A stretch of DNA of 63,641 bases from an uncultured Bacillota bacterium (GCA_947650795.1 CANSWR010000002.1:1-63641), one strand, 5' to 3'; positions 11,208 through 63,641 are shown, numbered from the stretch's first letter. A program made the numbers and translations. The notes: generated from the sequence alone by a model not told the origin.

Positions 11208-11828
11208 TCATGCCGTTTGATCTTCCCATACTACATTATCATCTGTAACCATTTTAACGACTTCTCTACCATCAATCTTATAAATACCTAATATTCTCCA
11301 CATAACACCACTATAATATAAATAATTATTTGGATTTACCCCAGTATATAAACATGGTTCACTCTCTGTGATAGTTTCACATTTTAAGTCATCCTTAATA
11401 GAATCCACTAAATCTTTATCTGTAGTACTACCCTCTTGTCCATCCCAAATAGCAATAACACTATTTCCAGTAACTTTAATAAGAATTCTTTCCTCATTCA
11501 AACTACTATCATCTACAGGATTTAAAACACATCCATTATCAGAATGACCACTTGTACATGAACCATAACCTTTATCAACTTCTGCATTAATATATTTGCT
11601 ATCAATTAAAGTATAAACATAAATAGTTGTATCTTGAATAAAATTTTTATCTCTTCCATAATTCTCAGCTGCTACTAAAATAAGCTGCTTCTTATTATCT
11701 AAAAGTCTTTCATTAATTCTCTTTCTTATAAGTACAATACTAGGAATAGCAATGGCTAGAATTATACCAATTATAACAATAACTATTAACACTTCAGTTA
11801 AAGTAAAACCAGACTTATTTTTATCCAT
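11208..11828 (-). CDS. prepilin-type N-terminal cleavage/methylation domain protein (type IV pilin-like)
   Basis: KSGFTLTEVLIVIVIIGIILAIAIPS has the G/FTLxE prepilin motif. Start chosen at MDKNKSG after GGAGGG. Confidence 0.8.
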   Translation of the reverse strand: MDKNKSGFTLTEVLIVIVIIGIILAIAIPSIVLIRKRINERLLDNKKQLILVAAENYGRDKNFIQDTTIYVYTLIDSKYINAEVDKGYGSCTSGHSDNGCVLNPVDDSSLNEERILIKVTGNSVIAIWDGQEGSTTDKDLVDSIKDDLKCETITESEPCLYTGVNPNNYLYYSGVMWRILGIYKIDGREVVKMVTDDNVVWEDQTA

Positions 11829-11949
11829 AACTATTTTACCCTCCATATTCTATATATGTATTATACCCAACTACTACTATTTATAATACAATCTAATATT
11901 ACCATGAATTTATAACAAAGTCAAAAATTAAATGGAGATAATCTAAAAT

Positions 11950-57114: not shown

Positions 57115-58062
57115 TTATTTAAGAGCTTCGATTAACTCTTCTTTCTTCATAGTAGAGTAACCTTTTACACCTTTATCTTTAGCTAAGACTTTTAAATCTG
57201 CTAATTTCATATCTTCTAATGATTCTGTTTCTTCTGGTTCACTAGAAACTTCGCTAACTTCAGTTTGATTTTCATCACTATTTACTTCTTTTTCTATTAC
57301 TTGAACCTCTTCACGAATCTTACCATCTTTACCTTTTTTAGGTTTTACAAACTCTTCTTCAGTCACATAATCTTCAAGCGGTAATCCATTTCCTTCACAA
57401 ACAGCATTAGCAAGAACTCCTAAAACCACTTTAACAGCACGTACTGCATCATCATTTCCTGGTATTACATAATCAACATCATCAGGATCGCTATTAGTAT
57501 CAACTATACCAAAAACAGGAATTCCTAATCTTCTTGCTTCTCTAATAGCATTTATTTCAATACGAGGGTCAGTTATAATAAGTGCTTGTGGTAATCTTGT
57601 CATTTCTCTTATACCACATAATATCTTATTTAACTTATCATATTCTTTTTGTAACTTTGCTACTTCTTTTTTAGGTAATAACTCAAACTTACCATCACTT
57701 TTCATTTTTTCGATTTGAGCTAAACGATTAATTCTTTCTCTAATAGTTTTAAAATTAGTAAGAATTCCTCCAAGCCAACGTTCAGTTACATAATAACCTC
57801 CACATCTTGTTGCCTCTTCAATACTAGCTTCTTGTGCTTGTTTTTTAGTACCAACAAACAATGCTTTACCGCCATCTTTACATGCTTCACGTAAAACAAC
57901 ATATGCTTCCTCTAATTTCTCAACTGTTTTCTCCAAATCAATAATATAAATATCATCTCTAGAAGTATAGATGTATTCTTTCATTTTAGGATTCCATCTT
58001 TTTGTTTGATGTCCAAAATGTACACCAGCTTCTAATAAATTTCCTTTTGACACTACTGCCAT
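57115..58062 (-). CDS. rpsB: 30S ribosomal protein S2 with an acidic linker and a C-terminal Rho_N/SAP-like module
   Basis: The canonical S2 core ([19 protein letters not shown]) is followed by about 70 extra residues ending [28 protein letters not shown]. Confidence 0.95.
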
Positions 58063-58269
58063 AATTTCACTCTTCCTTTCGTTATCCCTTCCTTTTGTTT
58101 CTAAACCTTTACACCTACATAATTGTAAGCACTAGTAAAAGAAATCCACAAAAGTGCTTATTTTCTAAAGCCGAATATATTTTAACACAATATTATATGT
58201 AAAGTAAATAAAAATATTAAAAACTAAAACATGAATATAAATTAAAAAACTAATAAAAATTATTTCTTA

Positions 58270-58425
58270 TCATAAAATCAAACATGTAACAAAATAATTA
58301 GAGAAATTACTGAGACGAACGACTCCATTATTGTTGACGTCTACGTTACTCAAGTAGCCAGGATAACTAGAACCCCACGCAATGAACACGCGCGCCCAAG
58401 TGCTATCCCAAGCCCACGGACTCAT
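58270..58425 (-). CDS. array mini-ORF 1
   Basis: MSPWAWDSTWARVFIAWGSSYPGYLSNVDVNNNGVVRLSNFSNYFVTCLIL (own codon-by-codon translation). This is the leftmost unit; the conserved 3' flank is truncated after AATTTCTCT. Confidence 0.55.
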   Translation of the reverse strand: MSPWAWDSTWARVFIAWGSSYPGYLSNVDVNNNGVVRLSNFSNYFVTCLIL

Positions 58426-58574
58426 TTAAGATTTTCTACAATATCATCCTAATTTATTTAACATAATTTATAAAAAAGAAACATTCAAATATTTACTAAA
58501 CCTTAATTATAAATAATATTAATTTTTAGTCATCATGACACGGATGACATTTGTTTCTCTAACAATTTTTTCTA

Positions 58575-58748
58575 CTATAACATAATATTATGAAAAAACT
58601 TTATCAAAGAGAAATTACTGAGACGAACGACAGTTGAACCACTGTTAACGGATAAACTACCCAAGCAGCCAGGAGCAGTAGATCCGTACAAAAACAAGAC
58701 AATCGCAGTGCCAGAACTAGAGCCCCACCTGAACTGTGACGGACTCAT
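58575..58748 (-). CDS. array mini-ORF 2
   Basis: MSPSQFRWGSSSGTAIVLFLYGSTAPGCLGSLSVNSGSTVVRLSNFSLIKFFHNIML. Confidence 0.55.
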   Translation of the reverse strand: MSPSQFRWGSSSGTAIVLFLYGSTAPGCLGSLSVNSGSTVVRLSNFSLIKFFHNIML

Positions 58749-58911
58749 CAATTATTTTTTATAATATTATCCTAAATTGTTAATAACAAGAAATATTCAA
58801 TTTTTACTAATTCTTAATCATAAATGATAATAAATATCTAGTATTACAATAAGGATAATATTTGTTTCTCTAATATTTTTTACTATAATTATTATCATGA
58901 AAAATTATTAA

Positions 58912-59040
58912 CTAAGAGAAATTTGGACGAACTACTCCATTACCATGAGCGACATTTGCATTTCCAGAACGGTCAGGATAAGTAGAACCGTATAAAGTAA
59001 ATACATGTACATTAATATCTATTAATTCAAACGGACTCAT
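58912..59040 (-). CDS. array mini-ORF 3
   Basis: MSPFELIDINVHVFTLYGSTYPDRSGNANVAHGNGVVRPNFS. Confidence 0.55.
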   Translation of the reverse strand: MSPFELIDINVHVFTLYGSTYPDRSGNANVAHGNGVVRPNFS

Positions 59041-59231
59041 TTAAAAATTTTTATAATATCATCCTAATTTATTTAACATAATTAATAAAAAAGAAACATT
59101 CAAATATTTACTAAATCTTAATTATAAATTATATAATTTTTAGTTATCATAACACGGATGACATTTGTTTCTCTTAAAACTTTTTCTACTATAACATAAT
59201 ATTATGAAAAAACTTTATCAAAGAGAAATTA

Positions 59232-59342
59232 CTAACGAACGACTCCAATATCGCCTAAATTCGCATTATTCAAACGGCCAGGATTTGTGCAACTAACATC
59301 GAACACGTACGCTCTAGTGCCATTCCAATAGTACGGACTCAT
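59232..59342 (-). CDS. array mini-ORF 4
   Basis: MSPYYWNGTRAYVFDVSCTNPGRLNNANLGDIGVVR, with the stop directly after GVVR. Confidence 0.55.
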   Translation of the reverse strand: MSPYYWNGTRAYVFDVSCTNPGRLNNANLGDIGVVR

Positions 59343-59501
59343 ATTCAATTTTACTATAATATCATCCTAATATATAAATATCATTTATTAATGAAGAATA
59401 TATAGTTATTTACTAACTCTTAATTATAAATAATATAACCTTTAGTCCTTATAATCTGGACAATATTTGTTTCTCTTAAATCTTTTCTACTATAAACCAA
59501 A

Positions 59502-59648
59502 TTATGAAAAAACACTATCAAAGAGAAATTTCTGACGAACAACTCCACTAACATCTTGAACACCAGCACCAGCCAAGTGGCCAGAATAAGTAGAACCACG
59601 AACCTGATACACGTCCGCCCTTGTACTATTCCAACCATACGGACTCAT
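59502..59648 (-). CDS. array mini-ORF 5
   Basis: MSPYGWNSTRADVYQVRGSTYSGHLAGAGVQDVSGVVRQKFLFDSVFS. The ORF-track entry 59420..59638 is an off-frame reading of the same unit. Confidence 0.55.
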   Translation of the reverse strand: MSPYGWNSTRADVYQVRGSTYSGHLAGAGVQDVSGVVRQKFLFDSVFS

Positions 59649-59760
59649 AATAACTTTACACAATATTATCCTCAACTAAAATTATTTTGAATGATAACTA
59701 TTTAGATATATAACAAGAATAATATTTGTTTCTCTTAAATTTTTTCTACTATAATTTACA

Positions 59761-59910
59761 TTATGAAAAAACTTTATTAAAGAGAAATTTTTGACGAACA
59801 ACTCCAGCAGTACTATAATCAACATTTGCATACCATAGTTGTCCTGATTTACTAGAGCCATGCACATTGAACATGTGCGCATATCCATCAAGCCAACCCC
59901 ACGGACTCAT
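59761..59910 (-). CDS. array mini-ORF 6
   Basis: MSPWGWLDGYAHMFNVHGSSKSGQLWYANVDYSTAGVVRQKFLFNKVFS. The ORF-track entry 59682..59891 is off-frame. Confidence 0.55.
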   Translation of the reverse strand: MSPWGWLDGYAHMFNVHGSSKSGQLWYANVDYSTAGVVRQKFLFNKVFS

Positions 59911-60000
59911 GCTTTTAAATCTTTTAAATACATTATTTATAATAATTTCAAATAAAAAATTACCAATATTATAATCTAAATCATTTATCTATAGATTACA

Positions 60001-60198
60001 TTACAAATAATGTTTGTTTCTCTTAAAACTTTTTCTACTATAACTCAAATTATGAAAAAGTAGTTTTAAAGAGAAATTACTAAGACGAACGACTCCATCA
60101 GTATTATAGATGTGAGTACCAGTTAAATGGCCAGGATTACTAGAACCTTTCACAAGAAACCCAGCTGAAAAAACGTTATTCCATGTCCACGGACTCAT
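60001..60198 (-). CDS. array mini-ORF 7
   Basis: ORF track: MSPWTWNNVFSAGFLVKGSSNPGHLTGTHIYNTDGVVRLSNFSLKLLFHNLSYSRKSFKRNKHYL. The tail after GVVR is read-through of the conserved flank. Confidence 0.55.
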   Translation of the reverse strand: MSPWTWNNVFSAGFLVKGSSNPGHLTGTHIYNTDGVVRLSNFSLKLLFHNLSYSRKSFKRNKHYL

Positions 60199-60289
60199 TA
60201 TTTTAATATTACTTACTGATTATCAAAATATTATTTTCATAAATTTAATAATAAATATTAACAATGTTTTTTAATCTATAATTTTTTAT

Positions 60290-60430
60290 GAATAATATTT
60301 TGTTTCTCTAATAATTTTTATAGATAAATTATTAGAAGAAATACTCTAATACTAAAAGTATAAATATCATTTAAGTAACTAGAACAATTTAAACAAAGCA
60401 ATATAACACACGCCTCAATGTCCACTGAAA
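60290..60430 (-). pseudogene. decayed array unit (7b)
   Basis: It keeps AATATTTTGTTTCTCTAATAATTTTTATAG and remnants of the core (..AACTAGAACAATTTAAACAAAGCAATATAACACACGCC..). It has lost the ORF, both anchors and the GC richness. Confidence 0.6.
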
Positions 60431-60572
60431 CAGAATCAATTAATTAATAGTATCTATTTTTACATTTTCCTATTAAAGTACTAACATAAAAATATGATTA
60501 TATCATTTTAGCATAAAAACTTTTAAATTAACATAGACAATATTTGTTTCTCTAATATTTTTTCTACTATAA

Positions 60573-60725
60573 TTATAAATTATGAAAAAAACTATATTTA
60601 AAGAGAAATTTTGGACGAACGACTCCATTAGTGCTGTAGACGTACGCGTAGCTCAACTGGCCAGGACTATTAGAACTCACACAGAACACGAGTGCCCCTA
60701 TGCCATCACGAATATACGGACTCAT
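60573..60725 (-). CDS. array mini-ORF 8
   Basis: MSPYIRDGIGALVFCVSSNSPGQLSYAYVYSTNGVVRPKFLFKYSFFHNL. Confidence 0.55.
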   Translation of the reverse strand: MSPYIRDGIGALVFCVSSNSPGQLSYAYVYSTNGVVRPKFLFKYSFFHNL

Positions 60726-60983
60726 AAAGTGCAATTAACTTATTTTCAATATTATCCACATTAATTATAATATAAATTAATTAAAACTTCTATTTCTTAA
60801 CAACATAATCACTCTTTAAGTTTCAAAAAAAATATATATTCTTAAAATTCTACTATTTCAGAATAATCAAAAAATAATATAAAATATTCCTCCAAAAGTA
60901 CTAATTTTATATTAAAAAACTTTTTAGTCTAAAGACAAAGAATAATATTTGTTTCTCTAATATCTTTTCTACTATAATATAAA

Positions 60984-61136
60984 TTATGAGAAGATGCTTT
61001 TTAAAGAGAAATTACTAGGACGAACAACTCCACGAGTATCATGAACACCAGCGTGACTCAAGAGACCAGGAAGTTCAAACCCCCACACATTGAACACGCC
61101 AGTCCATACACCATGCCAAATATACGGACTCGGCAA
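60984..61136 (-). CDS. array mini-ORF 9 (ATG replaced; possible TTG start one codon upstream)
   Basis: TAA-TTG-CCG-AGT-CCG... gives (M)PSPYIWHGVWTGVFNVWGFELPGLLSHAGVHDTRGVVRPSNFSLKSIFS. Confidence 0.45.
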   Translation of the reverse strand: MPSPYIWHGVWTGVFNVWGFELPGLLSHAGVHDTRGVVRPSNFSLKSIFS

Positions 61137-61162
61137 TTAATTAATAATATTATAATTTTTAA

Positions 61163-61375
61163 CTAAAAAAAGTTTCGGATAATATTTGTTTCTCTTATAC
61201 TTTTTCTACCATAATCTAAATTATGAAAAATTATTTTTAAAGAGAAATTACTAAGACGAACAACTCCACTAGTGACATGAACTCCTGAGTAGTACAATCG
61301 GCCAGGATTACCAGAACCAATCACAGTGAACACAAACACATAGCCATTAATCCAACAATGCGGACTCATACACAC
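61163..61375 (-). CDS. array mini-ORF 10
   Basis: ORF track: MCMSPHCWINGYVFVFTVIGSGNPGRLYYSGVHVTSGVVRLSNFSLKIIFHNLDYGRKSIRETNIIRNFF. The family-typical ATG (MSP) is at 61369. Confidence 0.55.
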   Translation of the reverse strand: MCMSPHCWINGYVFVFTVIGSGNPGRLYYSGVHVTSGVVRLSNFSLKIIFHNLDYGRKSIRETNIIRNFF

Positions 61376-61480
61376 TTTTATTAAATATTATTACAAAAAT
61401 AATGTCTAAAAATATCTTAATATAATATTTTTTTAATATACTATTTTAAATAATATTTGTTTCTCTTAAAACTTTTTCTA

Positions 61481-61654
61481 CTATAACATAATATTATGAA
61501 AAAACTTTATCAAAGAGAAATTACTAAGACGAACGACTCCATTCTCATTAATGTACTTCCAATTCAAGCGGCCAGCACTACTGGAAGTGCCTACCCAAAA
61601 CACAGCAGTACTTACATAACTATCACCATACCAGTAAAAGTAATACGGACTCAT
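61481..61654 (-). CDS. array mini-ORF 11
   Basis: MSPYYFYWYGDSYVSTAVFWVGTSSSAGRLNWKYINENGVVRLSNFSLIKFFHNIML. The track ORF starts 9 codons further upstream, at 61681. Confidence 0.55.
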   Translation of the reverse strand: MSPYYFYWYGDSYVSTAVFWVGTSSSAGRLNWKYINENGVVRLSNFSLIKFFHNIML

Positions 61655-61784
61655 ATCCAAATTCTTTCTAATATCATTCAATTTAATTTTTAACTGATAA
61701 AATTATCATTAATTAAATTACCTAGTTTTTTAAAACTATGAATAATATTTGTTTCTCTTAAAACTTTTTCTACTATAATTTACA

Positions 61785-61925
61785 TTATGAAAAAACTTTA
61801 TTAAAGAGAAATTTCGGACGAACGACTCCATCTGAATCACTAACATATGCGAAGGCCAAACGACCAGCATCTCCAGAACTCACAATGAACACAGCCGCCA
61901 AAGTAGCAAACCGAGACGGACTCAT
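61785..61925 (-). CDS. array mini-ORF 12
   Basis: MSPSRFATLAAVFIVSSGDAGRLAFAYVSDSDGVVRPKFLFNKVFS. Confidence 0.55.
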   Translation of the reverse strand: MSPSRFATLAAVFIVSSGDAGRLAFAYVSDSDGVVRPKFLFNKVFS

Positions 61926-62002
61926 TATTTTTGATTATCAAAATATAATATTTATAAATTTACTAATATGTATTAATAATGTATTTTCCATCTATAATAT
62001 TT

Positions 62003-62115
62003 AATAAATAATATTTTATTATTGAAATCACTAAGAAATATTCTAATATTAAAAGTTTAAATATCATAGTACAATTTGAACATAGCACATAGAACATACG
62101 CCTTGCAATAGCAAT
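62003..62115 (-). pseudogene. decayed array unit (12b), homologous to unit 7b
   Basis: ..ACAATTTGAACATAGCACATAGAACATACGCCTTGCAATAG.. aligns with unit 7b at roughly four of five positions by eye. Confidence 0.6.
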
Positions 62116-62165
62116 ATACAACGAAAAATTTTTTAATTAATAATACTTATTTTTACATTTTCCCA

Positions 62166-62468
62166 TTAAAATACTAATATAAAAATAAGCTTATCTAATT
62201 TTAGCATAAAAACTTTTAACTTAAAATAAAAATATATCAATTTCTTTAAAGTACAAATCATCTTAAACAATATTTGTTTCTCTAATATTTTTTCTACTAT
62301 AAAATTAATTATGAAAAAAACTATATTTAAAGAGAAATTTCTGAGACGAACAACTCCATTAGTGCCATAGTCAACATTTACATTCCACAACTGGCCAGGA
62401 CTACCAGAACCATGCACATCTAACATAAATACACGATTGTTAATATTATTCCAACAATACGGACTCAT
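62166..62468 (-). CDS. array mini-ORF 13 (long read-through tail)
   Basis: ORF track: MSPYCWNNINNRVFMLDVHGSGSPGQLWNVNVDYGTNGVVRLRNFSL... Only the first 41 codons belong to the family. The rest is flank and spacer that happens to stay open. Confidence 0.5.
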   Translation of the reverse strand: MSPYCWNNINNRVFMLDVHGSGSPGQLWNVNVDYGTNGVVRLRNFSLNIVFFIINFIVEKILEKQILFKMICTLKKLIYFYFKLKVFMLKLDKLIFILVF

Positions 62469-62623
62469 TTAAAATTTTACTAAAATATCATCTTAATTTA
62501 ATTAACATCATTTATTAATAAAGAATATTCAATTATTTACTAACTCTCAATTATAAATAATATAATTTTAGCCATTATAGCATGGACAATATTTATTTCT
62601 CTTAAACTTTTTCTACTATAAAA

Positions 62624-62776
62624 TTAATTATGAAAAAACTTTATTAAAGAGAAATTTCCAGAACGAACGACTCCATCAATGTCATGGACGCTCGTATAAC
62701 TCAATTGGCCGGGACCATATGAATCCCACACAATGAACACGCGTGCAAAGCCACTCCAAAACTCATGCGGACTCAT
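62624..62776 (-). CDS. array mini-ORF 14
   Basis: MSPHEFWSGFARVFIVWDSYGPGQLSYTSVHDIDGVVRSGNFSLIKFFHN. Confidence 0.55.
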   Translation of the reverse strand: MSPHEFWSGFARVFIVWDSYGPGQLSYTSVHDIDGVVRSGNFSLIKFFHN

Positions 62777-62914
62777 TTATATTTTTTACAATATCATCTT
62801 AATTCAATTATTTACTTACTCTTAATTATAAATAATATAATTTTAGTCATTATGACATAGACAATATTTGTTTCTCTATAAATTTTTCTACTATAAAATT
62901 AATTATGAAAAACT

Positions 62915-63046
62915 TTATAAAGAGAAATTTCTAGGACGAACGACTCCGCGATCATCTTGAACGCCTGCATAACCCAACAGGCCAGGACCACCAGAACTCA
63001 CAATGAACACGAGCGCGTTACCACTCCAAAACTCATGCGGACTCAT
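62915..63046 (-). CDS. array mini-ORF 15
   Basis: MSPHEFWSGNALVFIVSSGGPGLLGYAGVQDDRGVVRPRNFSL. Confidence 0.55.
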   Translation of the reverse strand: MSPHEFWSGNALVFIVSSGGPGLLGYAGVQDDRGVVRPRNFSL

Positions 63047-63232
63047 TTATATTTTTTACAATATCATCTTAATTTAATTAATATCATTTATCAATAAAGA
63101 ATATTCAATTATTTACTAACTCTCAATTATAAATAATATAATTTTTAGTCATTATGACATAGACAATATTTGTTTCTCTATAAATTTTTTCTACTATAAA
63201 ATTAATTATGAAAAAACTTTATTAAAGAGAAA

Positions 63233-63358
63233 TTACTGACGAACTACTCCATTACCATTGCTGACACTCCCGCCCCACAACTGGCCAGGATAATCAGAAC
63301 CAAATACATGGAACAGAATCGCACCGTCATCAATAATACCAGAACGATACGGACTCAA
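63233..63358 (-). CDS. array mini-ORF 16 (TTG in place of ATG)
   Basis: (M)SPYRSGIIDDGAILFHVFGSDYPGQLWGGSVSNGNGVVRQ. This is the rightmost unit, i.e. the first one on the minus strand. Confidence 0.45.
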   Translation of the reverse strand: MSPYRSGIIDDGAILFHVFGSDYPGQLWGGSVSNGNGVVRQ

Positions 63359-63513: not shown

Positions 63514-63552
63514 AACAGAAAAACCGACGACAAGCATAGCTTGCCGTCGGTA
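63514..63552 (-). terminator. strong rho-independent terminator upstream (minus-strand sense) of the array
   Basis: ACCGACGGCAAGC / GCTTGTCGTCGGT (13-bp stem, 4-nt loop), followed on the minus strand by TTTTTCTGTTG. Confidence 0.8.
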
Positions 63553-63641
63553 TGGTTAGCCCTCGAAATGGTTTTCTCGGTCTGTGTACCCCCTTATTTA
63601 CCTTGCTTCTTATCCATTCATCAACGTATATGGACTTGCTC
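63553..63641 (-). other. GC-rich, probably structured RNA segment running off the right edge (unassigned)
   Basis: Minus strand: GAGCAAGTCCATATACGTTGATGAATGGATAAGAAGCAAGGTAAATAAGGGGGTACACAGACCGAGAAAACCATTTCGAGGGCTAACCAT. GC is well above local coding DNA. There is a TCCAT...ATGGA hairpin, and it ends in the terminator. Confidence 0.25.

Follow-up and report, generated by a model that had tools for sequence, protein, structure and literature searches.

The window analysed here, which is a whole stretch of 63,641 nucleotides (nt) from an uncultured Bacillota bacterium (GCA_947650795.1, CANSWR010000002.1:1-63641), carries near its end an array of 16 short cassettes, and the question that this locus raises is how the cores of the cassettes, all of them open frames, can differ so much from one unit to the next when parts of the non-coding DNA around them are so alike. 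A first-pass annotation had understood this as coding sequence evolving far faster than the adjacent junk DNA, and had proposed diversifying selection, segmental replacement by recombination or targeted mutagenesis of the cores as the cause. Our explanation, to which we give an even chance, is that the array consists of orphan repeat cassettes of the type found in diversity-generating retroelements (DGRs), and not of a family of small genes, and that it serves as a stable library of donors or templates. We infer that the most likely function of such a library would be to keep a stable store of pre-made binding-site variants for the adjacent gene.

The cassettes and their parent gene

The array extends from 58265 to 63358 on the minus strand, between a terminator and rpsB. 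Its 16 units have the same orientation, and the CGGACTC anchors put units 7, 8, 12 and 13 at the positions that the first-pass annotation had given them. Read in the sense (minus) direction, each unit is made of an AT-rich spacer of around 45-340 nt, a core and a 3' element of around 75 nt, which we call H. The cores begin with ATGAGTCCG (MSP) and finish with GGAGTNGTTCGT (GVVR), and they are 108-126 nt long (36-42 codons), a multiple of three in 16 of 16. Those of units 1 to 8 (u1-u8) lie at 58315-58425, 58623-58748, 58927-59040, 59235-59342, 59535-59648, 59794-59910, 60085-60198 and 60615-60725, and those of u9-u16 at 61020-61133, 61256-61369, 61529-61654, 61818-61925, 62346-62468, 62663-62776, 62936-63046 and 63239-63358. 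All of them are open in the minus frame only, every other frame having between one and five stops, and their GC content is 35-53%, compared with a window mean of around 26%. The four cores compared in detail below are MSPWTWNNVFSAGFLVKGSSNPGHLTGTHIYNTDGVVR (unit 7), MSPYIRDGIGALVFCVSSNSPGQLSYAYVYSTNGVVR (unit 8), MSPSRFATLAAVFIVSSGDAGRLAFAYVSDSDGVVR (unit 12) and MSPYCWNNINNRVFMLDVHGSGSPGQLWNVNVDYGTNGVVR (unit 13); that of unit 7 recurs in six other assemblies, where its final R is mostly changed to C.

Sixteen open frames starting with MSP could be taken for real small genes under diversifying selection, encoding secreted peptides, precursors of ribosomally synthesised and post-translationally modified peptides (RiPPs) or type I toxins with antisense RNAs; furthermore, on the opposite strand H contains a promoter-like TTGTTT-N18/19-TATAAT, from which an antisense RNA could be transcribed. 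However, Shine-Dalgarno matches between -17 and -4 are absent from the cores (0/16), whereas 22 of the 32 ordinary minus-strand genes in the window have one, and units 9 and 16 are without an ATG. Past GVVR the frames diverge through indels of 2-6 nt, and the tails are unrelated and share no conserved stop. The peptides are not hydrophobic, the Pfam search with the 16 core peptides gave no match, nor did Rfam at gathering or permissive thresholds, and ARAGORN returned nothing. As regards the promoter, the scan is modestly above shuffles in this AT-rich DNA (58 sites vs 41 +/- 8). The single-nucleotide polymorphisms (SNPs) found in the cores between strains were 5 synonymous and 15 nonsynonymous, 22.5% synonymous being expected by chance, which is a ratio of nonsynonymous to synonymous rates (dN/dS) of about 1, and they reach the otherwise invariant P3, G43, V45 and R46. 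What would mark a family of small proteins, namely a translated open reading frame (ORF) that has a ribosome-binding site, ends in a conserved stop and gives a product that is hydrophobic or constrained in another way, is therefore lacking in the array. Judging from these features of the sequence, the cores are probably not genes, and the small-gene explanation seems to us very improbable indeed, all the more because the cores are homologous to a segment inside large proteins, as described next. The type I toxin-antitoxin and RiPP-precursor versions were rejected on account of the absence of Shine-Dalgarno sequences, the frame-varying tails, the dN/dS and this internal-segment homology. Opposite-strand MKK... 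ORFs behind the promoter-like motif were also discarded, since they are open in some units only and the cores carry stops in those frames. The first-pass annotation had called these cores live, but they behave as gene fragments. This is worth taking into account in annotation, because gene callers list such fragments as dozens of "proteins" of 36-100 amino acids.

A word-indexed protein search with the cores gave only near-identical small ORFs of the same species, from ENA and Logan metagenomes. The exhaustive HMMER search with a core profile gave 95 matches, many of them in proteins of 370-900 amino acids, and there the whole 38-position profile falls on one internal segment near the C-terminus (about 430-466 in the 493-residue protein P0017). 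These parent proteins read ...YYYLNASGGSSTGSxWWT before the segment, MSPxxW...VFxVxGSxxPGxL....V....GVVR along it, and PVISLKS...DPYxL after it. Since the core matches the segment that follows WWT and precedes PVISLK, from MSP to GVVR, the apparent start codon of the core is the Met of the WWTMSP motif. Furthermore, the arm AATTTCTCTT of H is a remnant of the (V/E)ISL codons, and intermediates ending ...GVVRPEISLQ or ...GVVRPVISLKK exist.

The parent proteins carry a SipW-type signal sequence, their N-terminal half is TasA-like (Foldseek 8aur), and the C-terminal half of one family member, P0040, has a Pfam match to DUF6273. AlphaFold2 (AF2) models of the parent proteins had a predicted local distance difference test score (pLDDT) of 86-88, and the model of the C-terminal half a pLDDT of 88 and a predicted template modelling score (pTM) of 0.90. 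With this last model, Foldseek found phage DUF6273 proteins and, in the IgA peptidase of Thomasclavelia ramosa, the N-terminal DUF6273 domain (9qa6, probability 1.00; assigned as DUF6273 in PMC12402451). In DUF6273 the fold is C-type-lectin-like, and DGRs are known to use its C-terminal end as variable repeat (PMC10743442; bioRxiv 10.1101/2024.10.15.618418). The profile position, Pfam, and AF2 with Foldseek thus agree on the kind of target that DGRs have, a protein of C-type-lectin fold whose domain ends in the variable repeat. Each core is a copy of a 36-42-codon variable segment of a secreted TasA-like/DUF6273 (C-type-lectin-like) protein.

Other searches were less productive. A search of PDB sequences with the family profile gave nothing significant, and DNA pattern scans of genome and metagenome contigs yielded no more than isolated chance matches, in organisms that are unrelated and mostly rich in GC, and none in viral contigs. 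The lineage is represented only by a few JGI contigs and by assemblies from ENA and Logan. In ENA assemblies we found around 100 separate 90%-identity clusters of a family member of around 814 amino acids with two domains, whose variation is only mildly concentrated in two variable segments. In the window itself there is also a 212-residue prepilin-type protein (11208-11846, minus strand) with an N_methyl / ComGC-like N-terminus; its C-terminal part has a "NPNNY..Y.G..WRI" motif in common with the start of the DUF6273-like domain (tblastn with P0085, E = 8.5e-6) and stops before the variable part.

The adenine signature and the 3' element

The codon usage of the cores is not that of the genome. 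At the third codon position, sense-strand A makes up 37.4% in housekeeping genes but 10.9% in the cores of the window and 9.4% in those of a second array (contig L015, see below), T being unchanged, and the codons CGT, GGC, GTG, TTG and CCG appear in place of the usual AGA, GGA, GTA, TTA and CCA. In the full-length relatives (contigs L046, L051 and L052) the shift occurs within a single gene, third-position A being 2-5% in the variable region and 46-48% in the 600 nt upstream. This variable region is bounded in L046 and L051 by the exact cassette motifs ATGAGTCCGT and GTCGTTCGTCC, and in L052 by motifs that are one or two bases off in each case (ATGACTCCGT and GTCGTACGTCC).

A related contig, L053, contains a sequence resembling a DGR template repeat, SPNNWNGSNANVFNVNGSSNPGNLNNTNVNNTNGVRP, which has AAC at 14 positions, AAT at two and scaffold codons that are mostly A-free, and which is collinear with the 38-codon cassettes. 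A at codon positions 1-2 plus AAC codons is a recognised template-repeat design (PMC5758913). The mean entropy of the cassette columns is 2.59 at columns where the codon of this template has A in its first or second position, against 0.93 at the others (Mann-Whitney p = 2.4e-6); in the variable columns it is 1.46, 1.50 and 1.18 at codon positions 1, 2 and 3 respectively, the third base being mostly T or C (NNY). The variability is then found, as in DGRs, at codons with A at positions 1-2, in an A-poor scaffold. On these grounds of composition, the core diversity appears best explained by past DGR-type adenine mutagenesis, or by the copying of sequence diversified in that way, rather than by selection on expressed small genes. 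Targeted mutagenesis, one of the causes proposed in the first-pass annotation, is supported as the historical source of the diversity by the adenine-codon match, the NNY pattern and the A-poor scaffold. The diversity of a core would have been made at once, either by such mutagenesis or by wholesale replacement.

The second kind of evidence comes from H, which follows the pattern AATTTCTCTT...TTTTTTCATAAT...TTATAGTAGAAAAA...AAGAGAAACAAATATT. An nhmmer profile of it found 15 full copies and one truncated copy, and none elsewhere in the window. In unit 7, for example, H (60007-60084, minus strand) has an imperfect inverted repeat, TTTCTCTT...AAGAGAAA, and in the loop it carries TTTCATAAT and TTATAGTAGAAAAA, both conserved. 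The fold of the element is a TTTCTCT/AGAGAAA stem of 7-8 bp that encloses a second, T/A-rich one, and the element is too conserved for covariation. A GC-rich GGAGTCGTTCGTC(C) end followed by this 7-8-bp stem is present in 15 of the 16 units; the stem is AT-rich, its loop is of around 45 nt and almost no covariation can be scored. The 3' half of H aligns with the sequence that follows the L053 template (around 80% over 50 nt) and has the AATTTCTCT arm in common with it, the matching stem being TCTCTA/TAGAGA in L053 and TCTCTT/AAGAGA in the cassettes. Therefore, H is homologous to an element adjacent to a template repeat. L053 continues into an ORF of 156 amino acids with weak MutS_I similarity, and MutS-like (MSL) proteins are a known class of DGR accessory proteins (PMC5758913). 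The whole of this contig (1-1123) shows several GC-rich hairpins, the AAC-rich template-like sequence, an H-like element with an insertion of around 60 nt and the MutS_I-like ORF, in this order, and it is too short to show a reverse transcriptase (RT).

Regarding the other motifs of the units, GATRATATT is found about 8-27 nt before the ATG of most cores and resembles an extended -10 element, although this similarity of sequence is only suggestive. A GTCATC...GATGAC hairpin with a T-rich run (58529-58548, plus strand), with equivalents in units 2 and 4, lies just upstream of H on the plus strand; it was flagged as terminator-like by a scan and is not conserved across the array.

With such a signature, the cassettes could also be active DGR recipients, that is, orphan variable repeats that are hypermutated in place today. 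Their variability pattern is DGR-like, and their architecture seems to fit the three published requirements for a recipient: the GGAGTCGTTCGTC(C) end together with some 21 nt, the inverted repeat, and 5' identity over 8 bp or more (PMC3240598). Nevertheless, the cores are near-identical in at least seven samples, with 0.8% scattered SNPs, no adenine bias and no multi-site rewriting, so that the ongoing hypervariation within populations expected of a DGR repeat is not seen in those contigs. Moreover, the core lengths differ, and in many cassettes the stretch from CGTC to AATTTCTCT contains indels and resembles the donor-type end of DGRs (IMH*-like, from initiation of mutagenic homing). We consider it improbable that the cassettes are recipients.

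The shared tract and the strain comparison

According to the first-pass annotation, three units (unit 7, a decayed cassette 7b and unit 8) were duplicated as a block (unit 12, a decayed cassette 12b and unit 13), and the duplication acted as an internal clock. The homology is real, with 76-95% identity by segment, but only around 440 nt are shared (around 1.3 units) and not three units. Copy A (60199-60640) comprises the ATG-side spacer of u7, dead cassette 7b, a second spacer, the H of u8 and the first 25 nt or so of core 8, whereas copy B (61926-62370) comprises the spacer, dead cassette 12b, the second spacer with a 37-nt insertion, the H of u13 and the first 25 nt or so of core 13. The limits of the tract are two conserved core edges, CGGACTCAT (u7/u12) and GACGAACNACTCC (u8/u13). 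The only long spacers of the array are those between u7 and u8 (338 nt) and between u12 and u13 (341 nt), which are homologous and contain one decayed AT-rich unit each. Cassette 7b (60293-60446, minus strand) keeps remnants of H and of the core framework, has a GC content of 21% and has no intact MSP or GVVR boundary; cassette 12b is at 62008-62140.

We counted the identity of each segment over the aligned columns of a direct alignment of copy A with copy B. It was 86% for the ATG-side spacer of u7/u12, 85% for the second spacer, 95% for the H of u8 and u13, and 76%, with several indels, for the dead cassettes, which had been estimated by eye at around 80%. The claim that the spacers and 3' flanks are nearly identical holds to this extent, but not for the H of u7 and u12, whose 86% is just the mean of all H pairs in the array (the H of u12 is 97% identical to that of u6), nor for the spacers outside the block, with only 52-53%. 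That the cores of the paired units are very different was correct. Their variable parts are 57% (u7/u12) and 62% (u8/u13) identical, the mean of any two cores being 58% (range 48-71%). Since the tract ends at conserved core edges, it need not have contained cores 7 and 12 at all. As to a possible assembly artefact, contigs of five other samples are collinear with the window at 98.2-100% (L045 and L047 span both blocks and L048-L050 span block B), therefore the layout is not an artefact of the window.

The flanks are not a neutral clock. Within the window, the H elements form similarity groups (u2-u4-u11, u6-u12, u8-u13 and u14-u16) that are 95-97% identical, whereas the matching cores are 51-62% identical, and because this disagreement lies within the window itself it does not depend on the quality of the strain assemblies. 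The strain contigs (L017-L023, L039-L045 and L047-L050) come from other samples and from assemblies of 2-5x coverage. The SNP rate between strains was 0.82% in the cores, 0.44% in the spacers and about 0.15-0.2% in the neighbouring housekeeping DNA. The cores are 99.2% identical across the contigs, and clustered differences were found in H only. In L044, the H of unit 7 has nine changes within 43 nt, and in L039 and L041 the H of unit 6 has nine changes within 56 nt, being closer to the u2/u4/u11 type (0.89-0.91) than to the u6 H of the window (0.81-0.83). The unit-7 core was found paired with at least three different tails (P0003, P0005 and P0012). Units 2-3 are absent in L021 and L022 and unit 9 is absent in L039, with the junctions in H. 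The variant H in L047 and L048 looks degraded, and some of these differences may come from errors in assembling a repeated sequence.

The cores are thus static between strains while the flanks appear to recombine. As H groups disagree with the cores and H can differ while the same core stays, the flanks have been homogenised or exchanged. Ectopic recombination would keep them alike, and H and the boundary motifs ATGAGTCCGT and GGAGTCGTTCGTC would be the apparent sites of recombination, both for the loss of units and for the exchange of flanks. The premise of fast-evolving cores does not agree with strain differences that are scattered single SNPs, and of diversifying selection there is no sign. 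Similar flanks do enclose different cores, but the pattern is an old one, explained by the combination of mutagenised cores, flanks homogenised by recombination and a tract ending at the core edges. More generally, coding sequence that seems to evolve faster than junk DNA can come from targeted mutagenesis and homogenised flanks, without selection on the fragments.

The same comparison bears on the main rival explanation, according to which the cassettes are relics of an old DGR locus behind the target gene, left after its variable and template repeats had recombined unequally, amplified in tandem and now drifting, their frames being still open only because A-poor, NNY-type sequence rarely holds stops. 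A dN/dS of about 1, with changes that strike invariant residues and boundary motifs, is what drift would give; furthermore two cassettes are decayed, the number of units seems to vary between strains, the window has no RT, and the relatives L046 and L052 have the family gene without an adjacent array. However, H and the boundary motifs are 86-97% identical over at least 28 units, at two loci and in several organisms, in a genome of 26% GC. In addition, the dead units have decayed to 21% GC while 16 of 16 cores keep their 35-53% GC and their open frame, and GATRATATT is kept at its place upstream of most cores. Relics are hence a possible explanation, although one that we doubt.

The adjacent gene and the known systems

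The last nine codons of a DUF6273-like family gene (...ASPYTLMNG) are at 63613-63641 on the minus strand, in the third frame, with the stop at 63610-63612; the gene is cut by the end of the window. They match the C-termini of the family (...DPYKLTMS and ...NPYTLTMQ), and the window end and the next 40 nt or so align with the 3' end of the 493-residue gene in L046. This gene is presumed to be the expression gene whose variable region the cassettes copy. A conserved GGGGGTACACAG(A/G)CC was observed around 20 nt past the stop of the family gene, both in the window (63575-63590, minus strand) and in L046 (about 2100-2115). An intrinsic terminator (63523-63551, minus strand; a 13-bp stem and then a T run) ends this upstream gene before the array, so that the array lies between a strong minus-strand terminator and rpsB-tsf. 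Because the 3' end of the family gene and the terminator directly precede it, the array sits downstream of the target gene, where the template of a DGR normally sits. None of the 2,863 relatives found by the P0017 search ends in ...YTLMNG, and our search for the expression gene of this species gave only 12 candidates with a chimeric query and only short contigs in the look-up of the unit-13 ORF.

L015 (1-3600), a contig of the same sample as one of the rpsB contigs, holds a second array upstream of prs (phosphoribosyl pyrophosphate synthetase), with at least 12 units whose cores are different. This array has a frameshifted unit (1535-1658), a unit decayed at its 5' side (1886-1996) and a unit fused to the next one (485-634). 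Cassette ORFs with an LSNFSL tail come from several other organisms. On the other side of the array, ribosomal protein S2 (57115-58062, minus strand) has a C-terminal Rho_N (PF07498) extension, and the identical protein is present in at least seven metagenome samples.

If the array is a library, its cassettes would act as template-repeat-like donors or as silent cassettes, and their sequence would be copied into the variable region of the adjacent gene, either by a trans-encoded DGR RT or by segmental gene conversion. The first route could work because the 9-10 nt of 5' identity exceed the 8 bp reported as sufficient (PMC3240598). A bolder version, tentative and in our opinion rather unlikely, is a multi-template retroelement archive, in which any one of at least 28 stable cassettes, each with a short-leader promoter and an RT-recognition hairpin, would be copied into the adjacent gene by a trans-encoded DGR-type RT. 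Such an archive would combine vls-like cassette switching with DGR adenine mutagenesis.

Several observations weigh against a library of DGR-type donors. Regarding the machinery, a six-frame scan of the 63.6-kb window found no YxDD in an RT context and no avd or MSL gene, and tblastn with ORF inspection found only housekeeping genes in it. There is no AAY-rich template in these 63.6 kb either, and hence no pair of template and variable repeats differing only at template adenines. The AT-rich 7-8-bp stem of H, with its loop of around 45 nt, is unlike the targets of phage DGRs, which are hairpins with GC-rich stems of 7-10 bp and 4-nt loops (PMC3240598). Compared with the foreign L053 template, the cassettes mismatch at 59% of the A sites, but also at 43% of the non-A sites, a modest excess that is due to the L053 template using AAC where this genome uses AAT-type codons. 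With lengths of 36-42 codons and differences at non-adenine positions, the cassettes did not arise simply from a single template, and some variable positions are occupied by W (TGG), a codon outside the reach of NNY recoding. Regarding the present state of the array, SNPs are as frequent in the boundary motifs as in the rest of the core (6/20), which fits weak or absent selection on single cassettes, two cassettes are dead, and the clustered changes in H and the missing units could partly be assembly chimeras or repeat collapse. Finally, the variable region of the adjacent gene is beyond position 63641, and no transfer from cassette to gene was seen.

DGRs are known as systems in which one template rewrites one or a few genes, and vls and pilS as systems that work by recombination only. 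The array has something of both. As in DGRs, each cassette corresponds to the variable repeat with which a DUF6273-like domain ends at its C-terminal side, A is confined to positions 1-2 of the variable codons in an A-poor scaffold, H has a homologue in the flank of an AAC-rich template repeat beside a MutS-like ORF, and the cassettes are downstream of the target gene, the usual place of the template; the GC-rich 3' boundary with an inverted repeat behind it may be a further likeness. Unlike DGRs, there are 16 tandem copies (plus at least 12 elsewhere), already diversified, instead of a single A-rich template; none of them is inside a full-length gene, their lengths differ, and neither the DGR genes nor present-day hypervariation are seen.

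The resemblance to silent-cassette systems (Borrelia vlsE/vls, Neisseria pilE/pilS, the donor sites of Treponema tprK and Mycoplasma synoviae vlhA) is that contiguous partial copies of the variable part, without start or other translation signals, lie beside what is presumably a full-length gene, that short direct repeats, probably shared with that gene, bound the cassettes, that all are kept open and that selection on each cassette is weak. The shared boundaries, ATGAGTCCGT and GTCGTTCGTCC, are seen in the relatives L046 and L051, the family gene of the window itself being represented by its last nine codons and its terminator only. Unlike in the vls, pilS, tprK and vlhA systems, around 190 nt of conserved non-coding sequence with a hairpin separate the cassettes, the boundary identities are of only 9-13 nt, the diversity is of a retroelement type of origin, and conversion into the expression site was not observed. 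We also considered an integron gene-cassette array, which has in common with this one the same-orientation units and an open frame followed by an imperfect inverted repeat; it was rejected, because the units are homologous to each other and to a gene fragment and there is no integrase or attC consensus. A tandem library of diversified DGR-type repeats behind its target gene, if this is what the array is, would link the DGR and the silent-cassette strategies, and it would show, in an uncultured, Firmicutes-like host of 26% GC, how storage of the useful variants of a ligand-binding site can take the place of their random regeneration.

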